Part shown: in pieces, positions 1-7,485 of the stretch
How positions within the stretch are numbered: position 1 is the stretch's first letter
Layout: every line of letters starts with the position of its first letter
Source: Bacteroidales bacterium
Lineage (GTDB): Bacteria > Bacteroidota > Bacteroidia > Bacteroidales > UBA10428
Direction of reading: 5' to 3'
Length of the DNA stretch: 28,903 nt
Assembly (NCBI GenBank): GCA_003508755.1
Contig: DNTK01000284.1
Span: 1-28,903, forward strand
Position numbers and translations under genes: made by a program
Notes under the pieces: model-generated
Told to the model about the DNA's origin: nothing
The model's input: only the letters and a program-made list of their open reading frames with translations
Databases searched by the model: none

Positions 1-958
1 GCATAAAATCTGCGAGCACAATTGCAGTAGCTGCTTCAACAATTACGGGTGCCCTGAGGGCTACACACAAATCATGTCGTCCTTCTACTTTGAGGGTATC
101 AACCTGTCCGGTTTTAACATTTAAAGTTTTTTGTTCTTTGCTAATACTCGAAGTGGGCTTAATTGCAATGCGAAATACCAGCTCATTCCCATTGGAGATA
201 CCTCCGTTTATTCCGCCGGCGTGGTTAGTTTCTGTTTTACCATCGATAGAGAGAATGTTGTCATTATGATCACTCCCCTTCATTCTGGCCGCCTGAAAGC
301 CCGAACCAAACTCAACCCCCTTAACAGCAGGTATTGAAAACATCATATGCGATAAAACCGATTCGAGAGAATCAAAAAATGGCTCGCCCAATCCAACCGG
401 AAGGTTCTGAGCACGGCATTCAATAATTCCTCCGATTGAGTTCTGCTCCTCCACTGCCTTGTCAATAGCTGCTTCAATGTCGGAATTACCTCCAGCCTCT
501 AATAACTTCGCATCGATATTTATTGGACTAATAAGCTTTTTAGCAATCACTCCTGCACCGACGAGTCCGAGCGTTAAGCGTGCTGAAAAATGTCCTCCAC
601 CTCGGTAGTCTTCAAATCCTCCAAATTTTTTTGAGGCAACAAAATCAGCATGTCCGGGTCGAGGCATTTCTCGTAATTTATCATAATCTTTAGAGCGTGT
701 ATTGGTATTTTCGAACTGAATGGCCAGCGGTGCTCCGGTGGTATGGTCATTAAAAACACCATTGGTTAGTTTTGGTAAATCGGCCTCTTTCCTGGGTGTG
801 GTGCCTTTTGCCCCTGCACGTCGTCGCGATAAATCAGCACTAAAATCGCTGAAGGCAAGTGGCAAACCCGCCGGCACACCATCGATAATAATGCCCACTC
901 CGGGGCCATGCGATTCGCCAAAAATACTCACTCGAAATATTTTTCCAAAGGTGTTCAT
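1..958 (-). CDS. aroC: Chorismate synthase (3' end runs off window)
   Basis: Missing from the ORF track because it is truncated. Manual translation from the ATG at 958 gives MNTFGKIFRVSIFGESHGPGVGIIIDGVPAG...PRPGHAD...YRGGGHFSAR, the chorismate synthase signatures. The ATG overlaps the aroD stop (TAATG). Confidence 0.96.
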   Translation of the reverse strand, partial: MNTFGKIFRVSIFGESHGPGVGIIIDGVPAGLPLAFSDFSADLSRRRAGAKGTTPRKEADLPKLTNGVFNDHTTGAPLAIQFENTNTRSKDYDKLREMPRPGHADFVASKKFGGFEDYRGGGHFSARLTLGLVGAGVIAKKLISPINIDAKLLEAGGNSDIEAAIDKAVEEQNSIGGIIECRAQNLPVGLGEPFFDSLESVLSHMMFSIPAVKGVEFGSGFQAARMKGSDHNDNILSIDGKTETNHAGGINGGISNGNELVFRIAIKPTSSISKEQKTLNVKTGQVDTLKVEGRHDLCVALRAPVIVEAATAIVLADFM

Positions 959-1608
959 TATTCGTTCAGTGTTTCATTAATGGTATCTACCAGTTCTTTC
1001 ATTTTTGAATAAGTGATTTGGCCCGGTGCAGTTTCTGCGCCACCATCTTCGGCTGCAAAAGTAAACTCTGCACCCAATAATGGAGCTACAATACGTGACA
1101 CTTTTCCTGCTGCTCCCATTCCCAGGGCAACCATGGGCTTATTGACAGAATAGAGAGATATTAGCCGTGCATTGTCCTCAAAGAAATTCACTTTTGTTGC
1201 AATTTTTGCCACATCAGCCCCCTTGTGGTAACATTCGTCAGCAATATCAAACAACTTTCGCATTCCCGGGGTTTCGGTAAAATTATGGTAAGAAATTATT
1301 ACCCGGCAATTGTTGCTTTTGGCTACTTCGATGAGCGCTTTTCTCTGATCTTCGCTGGCATCCAATTCTATATCTACATAGTTTGCTCCCGCTTCGATGG
1401 CCCGTCTTAGTTTAAAGTATTGCTCCTTTTCTGTCATATTATCGGGCCTGCAGGTGGCAATAAAATTGGCGTTTTCCTGACCGAAAACTACATCAATTGC
1501 TTCGTCGTCATACTCAGTTAAATCGAGTCGTATTTCGGCCATTTCTACCCCAGGAAGTATGGCAATGGCTTTTCTGTAATCTTTATCTGAAATCGCTACG
1601 CAAATCAT
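958..1608 (-). CDS. aroD: Type I 3-dehydroquinate dehydratase
   Basis: Motifs EIRLD, ISYHNF, ADVAKIA and ETAPGQ. Start placed at ATG 1608 (the track starts at the in-frame TTG 1611). Overlaps the aroB 3' end. Confidence 0.93.
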   Translation of the reverse strand: MICVAISDKDYRKAIAILPGVEMAEIRLDLTEYDDEAIDVVFGQENANFIATCRPDNMTEKEQYFKLRRAIEAGANYVDIELDASEDQRKALIEVAKSNNCRVIISYHNFTETPGMRKLFDIADECYHKGADVAKIATKVNFFEDNARLISLYSVNKPMVALGMGAAGKVSRIVAPLLGAEFTFAAEDGGAETAPGQITYSKMKELVDTINETLNE

Positions 1609-2626
1609 CAATTAATTGTTCAAGTTGTGAATAAGGTATTTTTTTTGTCACTGCCTCTCCAATGCCTTCAAGAAGTACAAGGTGAATTTCTTCGCCTTCA
1701 CGTTTTTTATCTTTTTTCATGGCATTAAAAAGCAAGGCAATATCGGTATTAGGCACAACCGGTAAATCGTATTGTAAAAGCACATTGCGAATGCGATCGG
1801 TATCTGCTGAACTTATCAATCCCAATTTCTCCGATACTTTAGCTGCAAGCACCATTCCTATGCTTACAGTCTGGCCGTGTAGTATTCCAGTTAGTTTTTC
1901 AATGGCATGGCCAAAAGTATGCCCCAGGTTAAGCAGCCTGCGCTCACCACGTTCACGTTCATCGGCCTCAACTACTTTTGCTTTCACTTCTACCGAATCG
2001 TAAATCATCTTAATCAGTGTACTGCTGTCATGCATTAATGCTGAATTGGCATTATTCTCGCAATAGGCAAACAGTTCTGCACTTTTTATTACGCCTGCCT
2101 TAATAATTTCTGAAAATCCAGCTTTAAACTGCTTTTCGTCAAGCGTTTTTAGCATGCCAGTATCGCAAAGAACAAATTCCGGTTGGCTAAAAACGCCAAT
2201 CATATTCTTGTAGCCCTGGAAATTAACTCCATTCTTTCCTCCCACACTGGCATCTACCTGCGAAAGTAAAGTGGTGGAAACAAAACCAAAAGGCATACCA
2301 CGCATAAAAGTTGAAGCTACAAATCCTGCAACATCACAAACTATTCCACCACCAATGGCCAGCAAAAATGTAGTTCTATCGGCTTCATAGTCGATCAATT
2401 TATCATAGATCTTCTCGAGAGTCAGCAGTGTTTTGTTGGTTTCTCCGAGTCCCATTTCAATTACCGGAACTTTTGATGGGAATCTTTTCCTGTATAGGCC
2501 TGCCACATAAGTATCGGTAAGTATAATGGTTTTTCTTCCCTTGAGATAGTTAGGAAGGTTCTCCATGCTCTCACCAATAAGTATTTTTGAAATATTCGAC
2601 TCAGCCTTTACCTCAAGTAATTTCAT
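1583..2626 (-). CDS. aroB: 3-dehydroquinate synthase
   Basis: Motifs AIGGGIVCDVAGFVAS, TTLLSQVDASVGGKNG, LNLGHTFGHAIE and DKK. Start is ATG 2626 or 2632; 2626 preferred because a promoter box abuts 2632. Confidence 0.96.
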   Translation of the reverse strand: MKLLEVKAESNISKILIGESMENLPNYLKGRKTIILTDTYVAGLYRKRFPSKVPVIEMGLGETNKTLLTLEKIYDKLIDYEADRTTFLLAIGGGIVCDVAGFVASTFMRGMPFGFVSTTLLSQVDASVGGKNGVNFQGYKNMIGVFSQPEFVLCDTGMLKTLDEKQFKAGFSEIIKAGVIKSAELFAYCENNANSALMHDSSTLIKMIYDSVEVKAKVVEADERERGERRLLNLGHTFGHAIEKLTGILHGQTVSIGMVLAAKVSEKLGLISSADTDRIRNVLLQYDLPVVPNTDIALLFNAMKKDKKREGEEIHLVLLEGIGEAVTKKIPYSQLEQLIDDLRSDFR

Positions 2627-2633
2627 ATTCATG

Positions 2634-2641
2634 CAAAGGTA
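2634..2641 (-). promoter_or_regulatory. Bacteroidota housekeeping -7 box (TACCTTTG), internal promoter for aroB-aroD-aroC
   Basis: Exact TAnnTTTG match in the short gap between the DAHPS/CM stop (2648) and aroB. Confidence 0.6.
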
Positions 2642-2647
2642 GAAAAA

Positions 2648-3733
2648 CTACTCATTCATTACTTTTTCCTGACGATTAATCGATTCCTGGTGAATGGCAC
2701 GAAGCACTTTAAGAATAAACTCTTCGCTCAGACCTTTACCGGTAGCTTTTTTAGTCCGCTCCTGTAGCAGTTCATCCCAGCGACCCGATTGCAGAATGGT
2801 TAAGTTGTTTTCCTTTTTATAACGACCTATTTTCTCGGCAACCTCCATACGACTGGCCAATATCTGTAAAAGTTGTGTGTCGTACTTATCTATTTCATGA
2901 CGCAATTCGTCCAGGGTATGCAAAGTCATAGTATTTTCGACATTCGGATTCCTAAGTACTAATCTATCAAGCAATTCCTTTAAAGCATTGGGAGTTAGCT
3001 GCTGTGCAGCATCGCTAATAGCTTTCTCGGGATTATTATGTGTTTCGATAATTAACCCTTCAAAGTTTAAGTCCATTCCCTTTTGGGAAATTTCAAAAAG
3101 GAGATCTCGATTCCCACAAATGTGACTCGGGTCAACAATAATAGGTAATTCAGGAATACGACGCTTGAGCTCAATAGGAATCTGCCATTGAGGTGCATTG
3201 CGATAAAAGCTTTTATCATAGCTGGAAAATCCCCGGTGAATGGCTGCCAGTTTTTTTATTCCAGCCTGGTTAATTCTTTCCAGTGCTCCAATCCAAAGTT
3301 CCACATCCGGATTTATAGGATTTTTGACCAGAACAGGTATGTCTGTACCTTCCAGGGCATCGGCGATTTCCTGAACAGCAAAAGGATTTGCTGTTGTACG
3401 AGCACCAATCCAAAGTATATCAACTCCGTATTTCAAAGCCTTAAATACATGGTTTGAGTTGGCTACTTCGGTAGCCGTAAGCATGCCCAGCTCAGCTTGT
3501 ACACGCTTTAACCAGTGGAGACCTTCCTTACCAACTCCCTCAAAGGTGTTAGGGCGTGTACGGGGTTTCCAAATACCCGCACGGAAAACATTCACGCCCA
3601 GGTTTTTAATCTTTTCTGCGGTATCCATTACCTGTTCTTCAGTTTCGGCACTGCAGGGGCCAGCCATTACCAGGGGGCGTTCATCGCTTACCCCGGGAAG
3701 TTTGAAGGGTTCAAGTTCTAATTTTACGCTCAT
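2648..3733 (-). CDS. Bifunctional DAHP synthase (type I-beta) / C-terminal chorismate mutase
   Basis: N-terminal AGPCSAE, RAGIWKPRTRP, IGART, KNP and DPSH motifs. C-terminal AroQ-like LDELRHEIDKYD...R...IGRYK. Start placed at ATG 3733; the track's longer start overlaps pheA. Confidence 0.93.
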   Translation of the reverse strand: MSVKLELEPFKLPGVSDERPLVMAGPCSAETEEQVMDTAEKIKNLGVNVFRAGIWKPRTRPNTFEGVGKEGLHWLKRVQAELGMLTATEVANSNHVFKALKYGVDILWIGARTTANPFAVQEIADALEGTDIPVLVKNPINPDVELWIGALERINQAGIKKLAAIHRGFSSYDKSFYRNAPQWQIPIELKRRIPELPIIVDPSHICGNRDLLFEISQKGMDLNFEGLIIETHNNPEKAISDAAQQLTPNALKELLDRLVLRNPNVENTMTLHTLDELRHEIDKYDTQLLQILASRMEVAEKIGRYKKENNLTILQSGRWDELLQERTKKATGKGLSEEFILKVLRAIHQESINRQEKVMNE

Positions 3734-3755
3734 ATCGTTTGTTTTTATTTTGTTT

Positions 3756-4616
3756 CTAATCCAATAGTTTAATACCCGAATAGTACTCACCCAGGATGTG
3801 CACATCAGAGGTAAAGGGCTTAATCGCTTTCAAAGCATGTTTGTACTGCTCGTAATCATTAACTTCCAAATCTACGTAGAATTGGTATTCCCAATCTTTC
3901 CCAATAATCGGCATAGACTGAATTTTAGTAAGATTAATTTCATGAAAACTGAAAATGGATAATATCTTTGAAAGGCTTCCATACTGGTGTGAAACCGCAA
4001 AGCTAATGGAGACTTTGTTAATATCCGAATCATGAAATGATCCTCCATTGCGGTCTTGCAGAATTAAAAAGCGTGTATAATTTTTCTTATTGGTTTCAAT
4101 TTCCTCTGCTACAATATCCAGTTTGTATTTTTTTGCAGCCAAATCACTTGCGATGGCAGCGATTCCTGTTAACTTTTCATCGGCAATCTTTTTAGCGCTC
4201 AAGGCTGTATCCAAGCTGTCCACGAGTTTTACTTCCGGATAATTGTCGAAAAAGTTCTGACACTGAAGAATTGCCATAGGGTGAGAAAACACCTCGCTAA
4301 TATCTGCCATGGTTTGCCCGGGAAGCGCAACCAGATTTTGCTTAATACGAAGGTATATTTCGCCTATTACCTTCATGTTTGATTCGAGTAAGAGGTTGTA
4401 GTTAGGCAATATACTGCCAGCCAAAGAGTTTTCGATAGCAGTAATACCAAAATCCACCAGACCATCCTTCAAGGCTTTAAACAAATCCTTAAAAGTGTTT
4501 CGAGGCACTATTTCAATGTTTTCATCACCGAAGTACTTAATGGCTGCTATTTCGTGGAAAGCACCGTACCCTCCCTGAATAGCAATTCGTTTTGTTTTTG
4601 AAATAGTGTCTGTCAT
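3756..4616 (-). CDS. pheA: Prephenate dehydratase with C-terminal ACT domain
   Basis: IAIQGGYGAFH, ENSLAGS, SHPMAILQC, NYTRF and ACT-like GSL..LSIFSFHEINLTKIQSMP. Confidence 0.94.
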   Translation of the reverse strand: MTDTISKTKRIAIQGGYGAFHEIAAIKYFGDENIEIVPRNTFKDLFKALKDGLVDFGITAIENSLAGSILPNYNLLLESNMKVIGEIYLRIKQNLVALPGQTMADISEVFSHPMAILQCQNFFDNYPEVKLVDSLDTALSAKKIADEKLTGIAAIASDLAAKKYKLDIVAEEIETNKKNYTRFLILQDRNGGSFHDSDINKVSISFAVSHQYGSLSKILSIFSFHEINLTKIQSMPIIGKDWEYQFYVDLEVNDYEQYKHALKAIKPFTSDVHILGEYYSGIKLLD

Positions 4617-4626
4617 AATTTTTTAT

Positions 4627-4658
4627 AAAAAAAAAAGTCCCGATTTTTTCGGGACTTT
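4627..4658 (-). terminator. Attenuator intrinsic terminator upstream of pheA
   Basis: Minus strand reads AAAGTCCCGA-AAAAA-TCGGGACTTT and continues into a T10 run that ends about 10 nt before the pheA ATG. Confidence 0.9.
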
Positions 4659-4696
4659 AAGCGTTAATATTTTAATTACCTATACTAAAAGCCCCT

Positions 4697-4756
4697 TCAT
4701 CTTTCGTTAAAAAAGAAATAAAAGAAGAAAAAGCTATATGCATGGTTTATAATCAT
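4697..4756 (-). CDS. Phe/Tyr-rich attenuator leader peptide MIINHAYSFFFFYFFFNER (19 aa)
   Basis: Manual translation: ATG at 4756, TGA at 4699-4697, 7 Phe and 2 Tyr within 10 consecutive codons. Lies between a -7 box and the terminator ahead of pheA. Confidence 0.88.
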   Translation of the reverse strand: MIINHAYSFFFFYFFFNER

Positions 4757-4778
4757 CGTTTTCTGTACTTTTCGAGAG

Positions 4779-4786
4779 CAAATATA
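4779..4786 (-). promoter_or_regulatory. -7 box (TATATTTG) of the leader-pheA operon
   Basis: Exact TAnnTTTG match 22 nt upstream of the leader ATG. Confidence 0.75.
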
Positions 4787-4850: not shown

Positions 4851-5483
4851 TTACTGGTTTATGTCGGATGTGGCTGCATTTTTCAGACTATCAAGATAGG
4901 CTTTAAATTCTTGTTCAGCGTTAACGATTGCCCTTGCTGTTTTCCTTTCTATAATTGCCGGAGCCATTGATTGTGTTTGTTGCTTTATATTATCTGAGGC
5001 AAACTGACGAAATTCATCACTCCTGATTTCTTCTTTAATCTGAATTTCCATATTCTTTGTGTAAGTTGAAGTAATTGAATCCAGTTTTTCTTCTAATTGT
5101 TGCACGTATTTATCCAGTTGTTCCAGCTGTTCGTGATGCAGCCTTGTAAGCTGATTTTTTGATTGATTAGCCATAGAAATTGCTGTAATAACGATAACTG
5201 TAATAACCAAAACTACAGCAGTAATTGAAATGAAGATTATCCGTCCGACACTTTTCCTGTAGCGTTGATTAAATTCATCAATCAATGTGCGTTCAAAGGA
5301 ATCTATCTCATCAAACGCTTCGTTCTTTAGACTGCCGATGCTTTTGCCCAGTTTCTTATCTACTCTTTTTGTAACCAGTTTTGAAATATCCTTTTTCACA
5401 TCCTTCCTGATGTCTTTTTCTATATCGTTTTTTAACGCTTTTTCAGCTTTTTTTCTACCAAGAAGTCTTATTTTCTTCTTCAT
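4851..5483 (-). CDS. Hypothetical single-pass membrane protein with Lys-rich N-terminus and coiled-coil C-terminus
   Basis: 210-aa ORF with its own -7 box, one hydrophobic segment (aa ~82-104) and a Q/E/L-rich helical tail. Confidence 0.75.
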   Translation of the reverse strand: MKKKIRLLGRKKAEKALKNDIEKDIRKDVKKDISKLVTKRVDKKLGKSIGSLKNEAFDEIDSFERTLIDEFNQRYRKSVGRIIFISITAVVLVITVIVITAISMANQSKNQLTRLHHEQLEQLDKYVQQLEEKLDSITSTYTKNMEIQIKEEIRSDEFRQFASDNIKQQTQSMAPAIIERKTARAIVNAEQEFKAYLDSLKNAATSDINQ

Positions 5484-5619: not shown

Positions 5620-7485
5620 TTACTCATCCAGCTTCTCAGCCAATTCGAACCACCTTAACTCTTTAAGCTCTATTTCCGAAAGTAGTTCTCCGATTTGTTT
5701 GGAGGCATCGATTATCTGATCGTTCGATAGTTCACCTGAATTTAATTGATCTTCCAATTGTGATTTCTGAGTAGTTAATCCCTCAATTTCTTTTTCAAGC
5801 TGCTCATATTCTAATCGCTCGCTATAGGTAAGCTTATTTTGAGATTTTTGAGGCTTCGATATCTTGGGCTTTAAGCCCTCTTTTATTTTCCCGGCAGTTT
5901 TCTTCTGTTTTTCTGACCATTCGATATATTGCGTATAGTTGCCCGGATAATCCTTAACCATTCCTGTTCCGTTGAAAACAAAAACATGGTCTACCAATTC
6001 ATCAAGAAAATAGCGGTCGTGAGAAACTATTAAAACGCATCCTGAAAAATCCTGAAGGTATTCTTCCAGCACTTCGAGGGTGGCGATATCCAAGTCGTTG
6101 GTGGGTTCATCAAGAATTAAAAAATTCGGGCTTTGCATCAACACTGAGCAGAGGTATAAGCGTCTTTTTTCGCCCCCGCTGAGCTTATAAATATAATCGT
6201 ACTGTCGTGCCGGAGGAAATAAAAAGTGATTTAAAAACTGTGATGCAGTGATGATCGTACCATCTGATAGTTTTACAGTTTCTGCTATTTCGGTCAAGGC
6301 ATCGAGCACTTTCATTTTTTCATCGAAATGCAGGCCGTCTTGCCTGTAATATCCAAACTTTATAGTTTCGCCGGTTTCTATAGCCCCAGCAGCAGGTGTT
6401 AGTTTTTGTGTAACAATATCGAGAAATGTTGACTTCCCTGAGCCATTTGCACCCAGTATACCAATTTTCTCATAAGGATTAAAGGTATAAGAAAAATCTT
6501 TCAGATAGCAGTCACCATCCCAAAAGAAATCTAAATGCTTTGCAACCAGAATTTTCTTTCCGAGGCGCTTTCCACCCACATTAATTTTTACCTTTTCTTC
6601 ATTTCTCTTTTGGGCAGCCTTATCCTTTAATTGATAAAAATTCTCCATTCGGTACTTTGCTTTGGTACCGCGGGCTTTTGGCATGCGCCGCATCCATTCT
6701 GTCTCTTTCCGCAGCAGATTTTCAGCTTTAGAAACCTCCGCCATTTGTTGCTCAATGCGTTCGGCCCTCTTGCGCAGAAAATAAGAGTAATTACCCTTAT
6801 ATCGATAGATTTTCTGAAGGTCAATTTCGATGATATCGTTACATACCCGATCAAGAAAATAGCGGTCATGCGTAACCATTAAAAGTGTAACTTTTGATCG
6901 TTGCAAGTAATCTTCCAACCAGGTAATCGCATGCACATCGAGATGGTTGGTAGGCTCATCAAGTATGATAAAGTCTGGCTCATCTATTAACATTGCGGCC
7001 AAGGCAATGCGTTTTTTCTGACCGCCTGATAATTCGTTGATTTTTTGCTGAAAGTTGCTTATTCCAAGTTGAGAAAGCAACTGTTGTATTCTGCTCTCAT
7101 AATCCCATAGCTTTTCATTATCGATGCAAACCGACAATTCTTCAATCTTTTTTATGTTATTTTTCTCAACAGCTACCTCATACTCTTTTATCAAATCAAG
7201 AGAGGGATTATTAACATCAAAAATGGCTTCCAGAATCGATTTTGAAGCATCTAATTGTGGTTCCTGGGTTAAATAGCCAATCTTTTTTCCGGGTAAAAAT
7301 CTGTAAGCACCTGAATCATGTGATTCCTCACCAGCAAGAATATTTAACAGGGTAGTCTTTCCTGTACCATTTGCAGCAATTAATCCAGTTTTATCTCCCT
7401 CCTCAATCGAAAATGACACCTGTTTGAGTAACTGCAAATCCCCGATTGATTTCGATACTCCCTCAACTTCCAATATTGCTGGCAT
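5620..7485 (-). CDS. ABC-F family ATP-binding protein (Uup-like)
   Basis: Two ABC cassettes (NGTGKT/LSGGQ/LDEPTNHL and NGSGKS/LSGGE/LDEPTNDL), linker EWMRRMPKARGTKAK, C-terminal coiled coil, no TM segments. Confidence 0.92.
   Translation of the reverse strand: MPAILEVEGVSKSIGDLQLLKQVSFSIEEGDKTGLIAANGTGKTTLLNILAGEESHDSGAYRFLPGKKIGYLTQEPQLDASKSILEAIFDVNNPSLDLIKEYEVAVEKNNIKKIEELSVCIDNEKLWDYESRIQQLLSQLGISNFQQKINELSGGQKKRIALAAMLIDEPDFIILDEPTNHLDVHAITWLEDYLQRSKVTLLMVTHDRYFLDRVCNDIIEIDLQKIYRYKGNYSYFLRKRAERIEQQMAEVSKAENLLRKETEWMRRMPKARGTKAKYRMENFYQLKDKAAQKRNEEKVKINVGGKRLGKKILVAKHLDFFWDGDCYLKDFSYTFNPYEKIGILGANGSGKSTFLDIVTQKLTPAAGAIETGETIKFGYYRQDGLHFDEKMKVLDALTEIAETVKLSDGTIITASQFLNHFLFPPARQYDYIYKLSGGEKRRLYLCSVLMQSPNFLILDEPTNDLDIATLEVLEEYLQDFSGCVLIVSHDRYFLDELVDHVFVFNGTGMVKDYPGNYTQYIEWSEKQKKTAGKIKEGLKPKISKPQKSQNKLTYSERLEYEQLEKEIEGLTTQKSQLEDQLNSGELSNDQIIDASKQIGELLSEIELKELRWFELAEKLDE

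Follow-up and report, generated by a model that had tools for sequence, protein, structure and literature searches.

The window (the whole 28,903-nt stretch of DNA that was analysed) carries, on one strand and with tight spacing, the genes pheA, a DAHP synthase/chorismate mutase fusion, aroB, aroD, and aroC. Ahead of pheA on the same strand, we observed a promoter box, a short open reading frame (ORF) that is rich in Phe and Tyr codons, an intrinsic terminator, and a set of RNA segments with alternative pairing partners. Listed in the direction of transcription, with the basis of each assignment, these features are:

4779–4786, minus strand: −7 promoter box TATATTTG of the Bacteroidota type (consensus TAnnTTTG); read from the sequence, with conserved spacing
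4697–4756, minus strand: leader ORF of 19 codons plus TGA, MIINHAYSFFFFYFFFNER, with 7 Phe and 2 Tyr; read from the sequence and conserved as an ORF
4709–4738, minus strand: regulatory codons 7–16 (Y S F F F F Y F F F), where the ribosome is proposed to stall; from the codon pattern in the genus
4678–4746, minus strand: 1:2 hairpin, an anti-antiterminator and possible pause hairpin; from minimum-energy folds
4685–4695, minus strand: segment 2, the antiterminator strand GGGGCUUUUAG; from the sequence, its pairing, and co-variation
4651–4661, minus strand: segment 3, CUUAAAGUCCC, common to the antiterminator and the 5′ arm of the terminator; from pairing, co-variation, and folds
4627–4658, minus strand: intrinsic terminator with a 10-bp stem (4658–4634) and a T10 run (4636–4627); from the terminator scan, folding, and alignment
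3756–4616, minus strand: pheA, prephenate dehydratase with an ACT domain, the first structural gene; Pfam PDT at 1.8e-57, plus ACT
2648–3805, minus strand: DAHP synthase/chorismate mutase fusion; ORF and domain search
1583–2632, minus strand: aroB; ORF and domain search
958–1611, minus strand: aroD; ORF and domain search
2–958, minus strand: aroC, cut by the contig end; ORF and domain search

In a relative with a complete genome (G005), whose PheA is 85% identical, the same gene order is followed by tyrA (prephenate dehydrogenase). The operon thus serves the synthesis of Phe as well as Tyr, in keeping with the mixed composition of the leader. Taken from 3805, the longest ORF for the DAHP synthase/chorismate mutase shares 50 nt with pheA; the ATG at 3733 is the likelier start because it lies 22 nt past the pheA stop and fits the 361-aa length of the G005 orthologue. 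Within the operon, an exact TACCTTTG lies at 2634–2641 (minus strand), 1 nt before the aroB ATG at 2632; this site is not conserved, as 20 relatives were checked and none had a TAnnTTTG in the 60 nt that lead up to aroB. On the other side of the leader, a 210-aa ORF that belongs to no Pfam family (4851–5483, minus strand) stands between an ABC-F ATPase gene (5620–7485) and the leader promoter. The ORF (of at least 150 aa) closest to the leader in G005 is the ABC-F gene itself, and from this comparison of sequences the 210-aa ORF may be a lineage-specific insertion. The region has a G+C content of 35%, the nearest named records are metagenome-assembled genomes of uncultured Bacteroidales, and the stretch is found in DNA sequencing runs of samples from microbial mats and salt marshes. 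In two salt-marsh metatranscriptome runs with small shares of the region, low-depth contigs covered only 4197–4457 and 3600–3891, i.e., parts of pheA and its 3′ junction, and did not extend to the leader.

The leader ORF extends from an ATG at 4756–4754 to a TGA at 4699–4697, and 9 of the 10 codons 7–16 encode Phe or Tyr, just as a sequence-only reading of this DNA, made before our analysis, had described. That reading had also named the TATATTTG at 4786–4779 as a −7 box, and this sequence indeed fits TAnnTTTG. It begins 30 nt ahead of the leader ATG, a distance that implies a 5′ untranslated region of roughly 12–18 nt. A Phe/Tyr-rich ORF of 17–21 codons that ends ~80–90 nt before pheA was present in all 29 relatives (22 genomes of the genus and 7 from other families of the order, all with sequence upstream of pheA). 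The comparison of pheA upstream regions across Bacteroidota, which the sequence-only reading had put forward as a check, gave a similar picture: Among 105 non-redundant loci that were fetched via PheA alignment, 100 displayed a Phe/Tyr-rich leader ORF upstream of pheA, in a set that takes in Bacteroides nordii, Parabacteroides, Dysgonomonas, Muribaculaceae, Paludibacter, and Tannerella as well as Lentimicrobium, Saccharicrinis, and Saprospiraceae. A TAnnTTTG box was found upstream of the leader ATG, at a median distance of 29 nt, in 69 of 83 loci and in every locus of the genus, a fixed spacing that puts the leader at the transcript's 5′ end.

The pattern of substitutions in the leader follows its codons. 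Across the 22 sequences of the genus, codons 9–15 showed an invariant T at the first position, T or A at the second, and T or C at the third, so that these codons vary solely between TTY and TAY and every variant still encodes Phe or Tyr. Gaps inside the Phe/Tyr run were 3 nt long in the MAFFT alignment of the genus. Judged from these sequences, the reading frame of the leader ORF is under selection in the genus. Because Tyr accounts for 2 of the 9 sensing codons, the sensitivity to Tyr may be low.

Downstream of the leader, a hairpin with the stem AAAGUCCCGA/UCGGGACUUU (5 G-C pairs, 5-nt loop) and a stability of −14.5 kcal/mol runs into the T10 tract, and the pheA ATG at 4616 follows 10 nt past the T run. 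The consensus terminator scan recovered this hairpin and T10 (4658–4627), which had been described earlier as standing directly before pheA, as its one terminator, where 0.6 were expected in shuffles. In the alignment of the genus (25 sequences), 96.4% of the cells of the terminator stem were paired, and 3 pairs had changed on both sides. Of the 100 loci with a leader, 83 contained a terminator, and in 82 loci it had a stability of −13 to −24 kcal/mol and a run of T7–T10. For the other 17 loci with a Phe/Tyr leader, the terminator finder returned none between the leader stop and pheA, which may reflect either a different control mode or a limit of the finder. Loci of this kind include L041–L045, where the leader ends ~45 nt before pheA, and L054, L057, L059, L070, L075, L095, L096, and L100.

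The segments between the leader and pheA provide an alternative partner for the 5′ arm of the terminator. A single A stands between the leader stop and GGGGCUUUUAG, and an AU-rich spacer separates GGGGCUUUUAG from CUUAAAGUCCC. The sequence-only reading had proposed that these two segments (4695–4685 and 4661–4651) form an antiterminator that is mutually exclusive with the terminator. We found that they pair at 10 of 11 positions, with one U-U mismatch and a helix energy of −10.0 kcal/mol, and that the helix excludes the terminator by sharing its 5′ arm. Its GGGG:CCC core was 94.6% paired in the alignment of the genus.

Across the phylum, the position of segment 2 relative to the leader stop distinguishes two layouts. 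In the short-leader type, which includes the window, segment 2 begins 0–1 nt past the stop codon, whereas in the long-leader type, which is found in Parabacteroides, Bacteroides, and Muribaculaceae, it lies inside the ORF, 10–30 nt before the stop. Under either layout, segment 2 would be occluded by a ribosome that has translated the leader to its end. Loci of the long-leader type comprise L047, L048, L056, L066, L077, L089, L090, L093, L098, and L107, among others; the end of their ORFs encodes a conserved tail (e.g., KAGICM, with GCAGGA pairing to UCCUGC).

Co-variation between the two strands of the antiterminator depended on the breadth of the comparison. Within the genus alignment, covariation of the 2:3 helix was not significant (78 of 500 shuffles reached the observed percentage paired), as the helix hardly varies there and the alignment columns are disrupted by gaps. 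For a wider test, we instead computed per-locus duplexes and permuted the partners. In each of 82 loci, the duplex was taken as the best pairing of the terminator 5′ arm with the RNA that begins where the Phe/Tyr run ends and reaches the terminator, a start point chosen because a search region beginning 15 nt before the stop misses segment 2 in loci of the long-leader type. The duplex reached −8 kcal/mol or lower in 77 of the 82 loci and −10 kcal/mol or lower in 69. Between loci, both strands were observed to change in concert, as in GGGGCU/AGUCCC, UUGGGAU/AUCCCAA, and AGCGGGA/UCCCGCU, with further matched changes in GGCAGGAUUUU/AAAAGUCCUGCC and GAACGGGAUU/AAUCCCGUUC. For the 42 distinct types of arm, own partners gave −12.87 kcal/mol versus −8.64 ± 0.39 kcal/mol for permuted partners (z = −10.9; 0 of 10,000 permutations), a test that overstates independence because the loci are related. 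Given the many different arm sequences, chance co-variation is nonetheless very unlikely. The search for compensatory changes that had been suggested alongside the earlier reading thus succeeded across the 42 arm types and for three pairs of the terminator, but not for the 2:3 helix within the genus.

Two relatives from the genus departed from this picture. In L014 and L015, the leader stop comes earlier and GAGGC replaces GGGGC in segment 2, and the duplex with the terminator arm amounts to just −2.5 kcal/mol. The switch in these two loci may be weakened or rewired.

Folding of the region revealed a further element that went beyond the list of the sequence-only reading: a 1:2 hairpin, present in the minimum-energy fold at −18 to −20 kcal/mol, where the Phe-codon tract at 4735–4717 pairs with 4708–4690, a stretch that includes the stop codon and GGGGCU. 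The regulatory codons 7–16 overlap segment 1 of this hairpin. With its addition, the four-segment set of a classical attenuator is complete. In the genus alignment, 77.7% of the cells of the 1:2 hairpin were paired and its covariation was no better than in shuffles; the helix may in part arise because a U-rich Phe tract faces a purine-rich segment. As a whole, the 156-nt region folded better than all of 200 dinucleotide shuffles (z = −3.44).

In full-length equilibrium folds, the terminator (−14.5 kcal/mol) beat the antiterminator (−10.0 kcal/mol) whichever Phe/Tyr codons were masked. Since the terminator is always preferred at equilibrium, the switch must be kinetic. The terminator of the E. 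coli trp attenuator is likewise more stable than its antiterminator at equilibrium. We also folded nascent RNA, which extended up to the terminator loop and was truncated before segment 4, with an assumed ribosome footprint that reached, as an approximation, from 15 nt before to 14 nt after the first base of the A-site codon. With no ribosome, the nascent RNA formed the 1:2 hairpin (−20.2 kcal/mol) and left segment 3 free. With the A site on codon 9, 12, 13, or 16, it formed the 2:3 antiterminator, in whole folds of −13.1 to −15.4 kcal/mol. When the ribosome was placed at the stop codon, the assumed footprint covered segment 2, and segment 3 was free. Masking of the leader, another check named with the sequence-only reading, hence made no difference at equilibrium, where the terminator was always kept, but yielded three predicted states in the nascent folds.

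We consider it highly probable (roughly 90%) that the element acts as a ribosome-mediated leader-peptide transcription attenuator, through which the supply of charged tRNA-Phe, and less strongly that of tRNA-Tyr, controls pheA, the DAHP synthase/chorismate mutase gene, aroB, aroD, and aroC (and tyrA, where present). The sequence-only reading had reached a pheL/trpL-type attenuation, and the conserved in-frame ORF and terminator, the co-variation of the 2:3 strands, and the folds at different ribosome positions all speak for it. From these patterns, we infer leader translation, ribosome stalling, transcription-translation coupling, and a response in vivo. The proposed sequence of events is as follows. 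Transcription would start a few nucleotides past the −7 box, and the 19-codon leader would be translated as the RNA emerges. With ample Phe and Tyr, the ribosome would reach the UGA at 4699–4697, where its footprint would cover GGGGCUUUUAG; with segment 2 covered, segment 3 would be free to pair with segment 4, and RNA polymerase would terminate at the T10 before pheA. When Phe-tRNA or Tyr-tRNA is scarce, the ribosome would stall on codons 9–16, thereby opening the 1:2 hairpin and freeing segment 2, which could then pair with segment 3 before segment 4 is made, so that no terminator would form and the operon would be read through. If the leader is not translated at all, the 1:2 hairpin would sequester segment 2, and termination would be expected. 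On this modeling, read-through would depend on kinetics and on a presumed coupling of transcription and translation.

Other explanations of the same features fared less well. The strongest of them, which we nevertheless regard as improbable, holds that the leader works mainly via Rho loading or via translation initiation at pheA, with intrinsic termination being secondary. Translation initiation in Bacteroidota involves no strong Shine-Dalgarno sequence and is said to depend on unstructured A-rich leaders, and with a hairpin and U tract that end just 10 nt before the pheA AUG, the alternative folds could control initiation there; the 17 loci with a Phe/Tyr leader and no detected terminator point in the same direction. 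However, the canonical terminator is strong in the 82 loci described above, its 5′ arm is exactly the sequence that co-varies with segment 2, and the pheA start codon was unsequestered in every fold. Still less probable is that the 19-aa product, rather than being a passive codon sensor, has a function of its own, as a small hydrophobic peptide or as a sequence-specific nascent arrest peptide like TnaC or SecM. The peptide is indeed hydrophobic, its length is conserved within the genus (17–21 aa), and a Tyr-Ser ahead of the run is fairly conserved. Yet, phylum-wide, the flanking residues and the length (16 to 33 aa) vary freely and the Phe/Tyr composition alone is conserved, while the conservation of Ser is explained at the RNA level by the pairing of its codon, AGC, with the GCU of segment 2. 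Least probable of all, and effectively refuted already by the co-variation, the promoter spacing, and the codon pattern, is that the hairpin and T10 are a constitutive terminator (e.g., of the 210-aa ORF) or a partial insulator with a chance Phe/Tyr ORF in a T-rich spacer: While T-rich tracts and short ORFs are common in such an AT-rich region and a single terminator-like site is unremarkable by itself against the shuffles, a conserved promoter box separates the upstream gene from the leader, the changes in the in-frame ORF all preserve Phe or Tyr, the ORF stays with pheA despite the different upstream neighbor in G005 (the adjoining ABC-F gene), and segment 2 co-varies with the terminator arm.

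The attenuator that we favor resembles the E. coli pheL-pheA system and, more broadly, the class of trpL, hisL, leuL, and thrL, with which it shares the same four-segment logic. E. coli pheL comprises a leader ORF with Phe codons, 1:2, 2:3, and 3:4 helices, and a terminator that is more stable than the antiterminator, and its segment 2 begins just past the stop codon. The window differs from pheL in that Tyr codons are conserved in the run, which suggests a dual signal, and in that the promoter is of the Bacteroidota type and no Shine-Dalgarno sequence is present. The operons differ as well: DAHP synthase/chorismate mutase, aroB, aroD, aroC, and tyrA accompany pheA in operons of the window's type, whereas in E. 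coli pheA stands alone. The Rfam model RF01859 (Phe_leader) matched the window over its full length with 34.2 bits (E = 8.7e-4), below the gathering threshold of 55, and no Rfam family reached gathering in 20 diverse related loci. The element works like pheL but lies outside the Rfam family RF01859. Within the same phylum, Bacteroid-trp (RF01692) is likewise a leader-peptide attenuator of an aromatic amino-acid operon; it differs in having Trp as the sensing codons, in the operon that it controls, and in its sequence family, and it is included in Rfam, whereas the Phe/Tyr element is absent from it.

A closer counterpart is found in Flavobacterium psychrophilum, for which a pheA leader-peptide attenuation element has been annotated (Guerin et al. 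2021, ISME Commun, PMC9723704). There, a 171-nt 5′ segment precedes pheA and its transcription start was mapped, and the accompanying tables display a high leader signal with low pheA in some conditions and high signals for both in minimal medium (PMC9723704). The sequence-only reading had stated that it knew of no experimentally characterized case in this lineage. With a mapped start and condition-dependent read-through in F. psychrophilum, this statement no longer holds in full, although that work contains no mutational test (PMC9723704). In the literature, we found no genetic test of such an element in any Bacteroidota and nothing specific to pheA for Bacteroides. A transcriptome paper on B. 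thetaiotaomicron mentions leader-like short ORFs only generically, and Naville and Gautheret (2010) mention neither Bacteroidetes nor pheA.

Compared by layout, the window shares with F. psychrophilum the pheA leader architecture of Bacteroidota, i.e., an ORF, a terminator, and a complementary segment. Both belong to the same phylum, have pheA as the first gene, and carry an aromatic-rich short ORF that is followed by an intrinsic terminator. In the F. psychrophilum sequence (PMC9723704), GGGATTGT within the ORF exactly complements ACAATCCC of the terminator 5′ arm, which amounts to the 2:3 logic of the long-leader type; segment 2 accordingly lies inside the ORF there and just past the stop in the window. 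The F. psychrophilum peptide, MNTNNTFYSNNSFYFYWNIGRDCYMVI, has 27 aa with fewer Phe and one Trp, compared to 19 aa in the window, and the operon consists of pheA-aspC3 rather than of pheA and shikimate genes.

Some loci were found to carry two tandem Phe/Tyr-rich leader ORFs before pheA (L051, L060, L079, L086, L101, L067, L038, and L039). Such tandem leaders occur in loci of the Saprospiraceae-like kind and in some from Bacteroidales. In the majority, the proximal leader lacks a −7 box of its own, and in several cases another terminator stands directly ahead of it.

The element is a genuine and widely conserved Phe/Tyr attenuator that is mechanistically textbook and that will not surprise a specialist; the pheA attenuator reveals no new principle. 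What the comparison adds is phylum-wide support for the antiterminator helix of an element that is missing from Rfam and from the annotation of Bacteroidota, and an indication that classical attenuation with coupled transcription and translation occurs widely in a phylum that initiates translation differently from E. coli. It also supplies a rule for annotation (a short Phe/Tyr ORF and then a terminator, upstream of pheA) and makes the element a natural candidate for a Phe/Tyr-responsive switch. A more far-reaching proposal, which we find doubtful and put forward only tentatively, is that this one Phe-biased attenuator (7 Phe, 2 Tyr) could be the main transcriptional gate in the genus for pheA and tyrA and for the common shikimate trunk (DAHP synthase, aroB, aroD, and aroC) at once, as a member of a phylum-wide family outside Rfam that comes in two layouts, in a phylum without Shine-Dalgarno-led initiation. 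If that were true, sufficiency of Phe and Tyr would throttle the supply of chorismate for Trp, folate, and quinones too. This would imply an unrecognized compensating device, e.g., basal read-through of a relatively weak terminator or lineage-specific internal promoters.

Leaders of this general kind also occur elsewhere in the same genome, where we ran a scan for leaders followed by terminators on the 66%-complete assembly. One candidate from the scan, MQDRFWWDQ (contig C507), lies past the end of a convergent PKD-domain gene, and it is most likely a chance ORF beside the terminator of that gene. A His leader, MYISNTHKHHHHAG, was found ~100 nt upstream of hisG (Pfam HisG and HisG_C; contig C265, 1139–1183, minus strand; locus L113), with a terminator of −15.9 kcal/mol. 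A Trp leader, MNKFFYTNWWWLGVIK, with a strong terminator precedes trpE-trpG-trpD (contig C258, 4024–4074, minus strand; loci L111 and L114), and it scored 44.2 bits against the Rfam model of Bacteroid-trp, just below the cut-off of 49. With these two leaders besides the one at pheA, the organism appears to control three amino-acid operons in this way.
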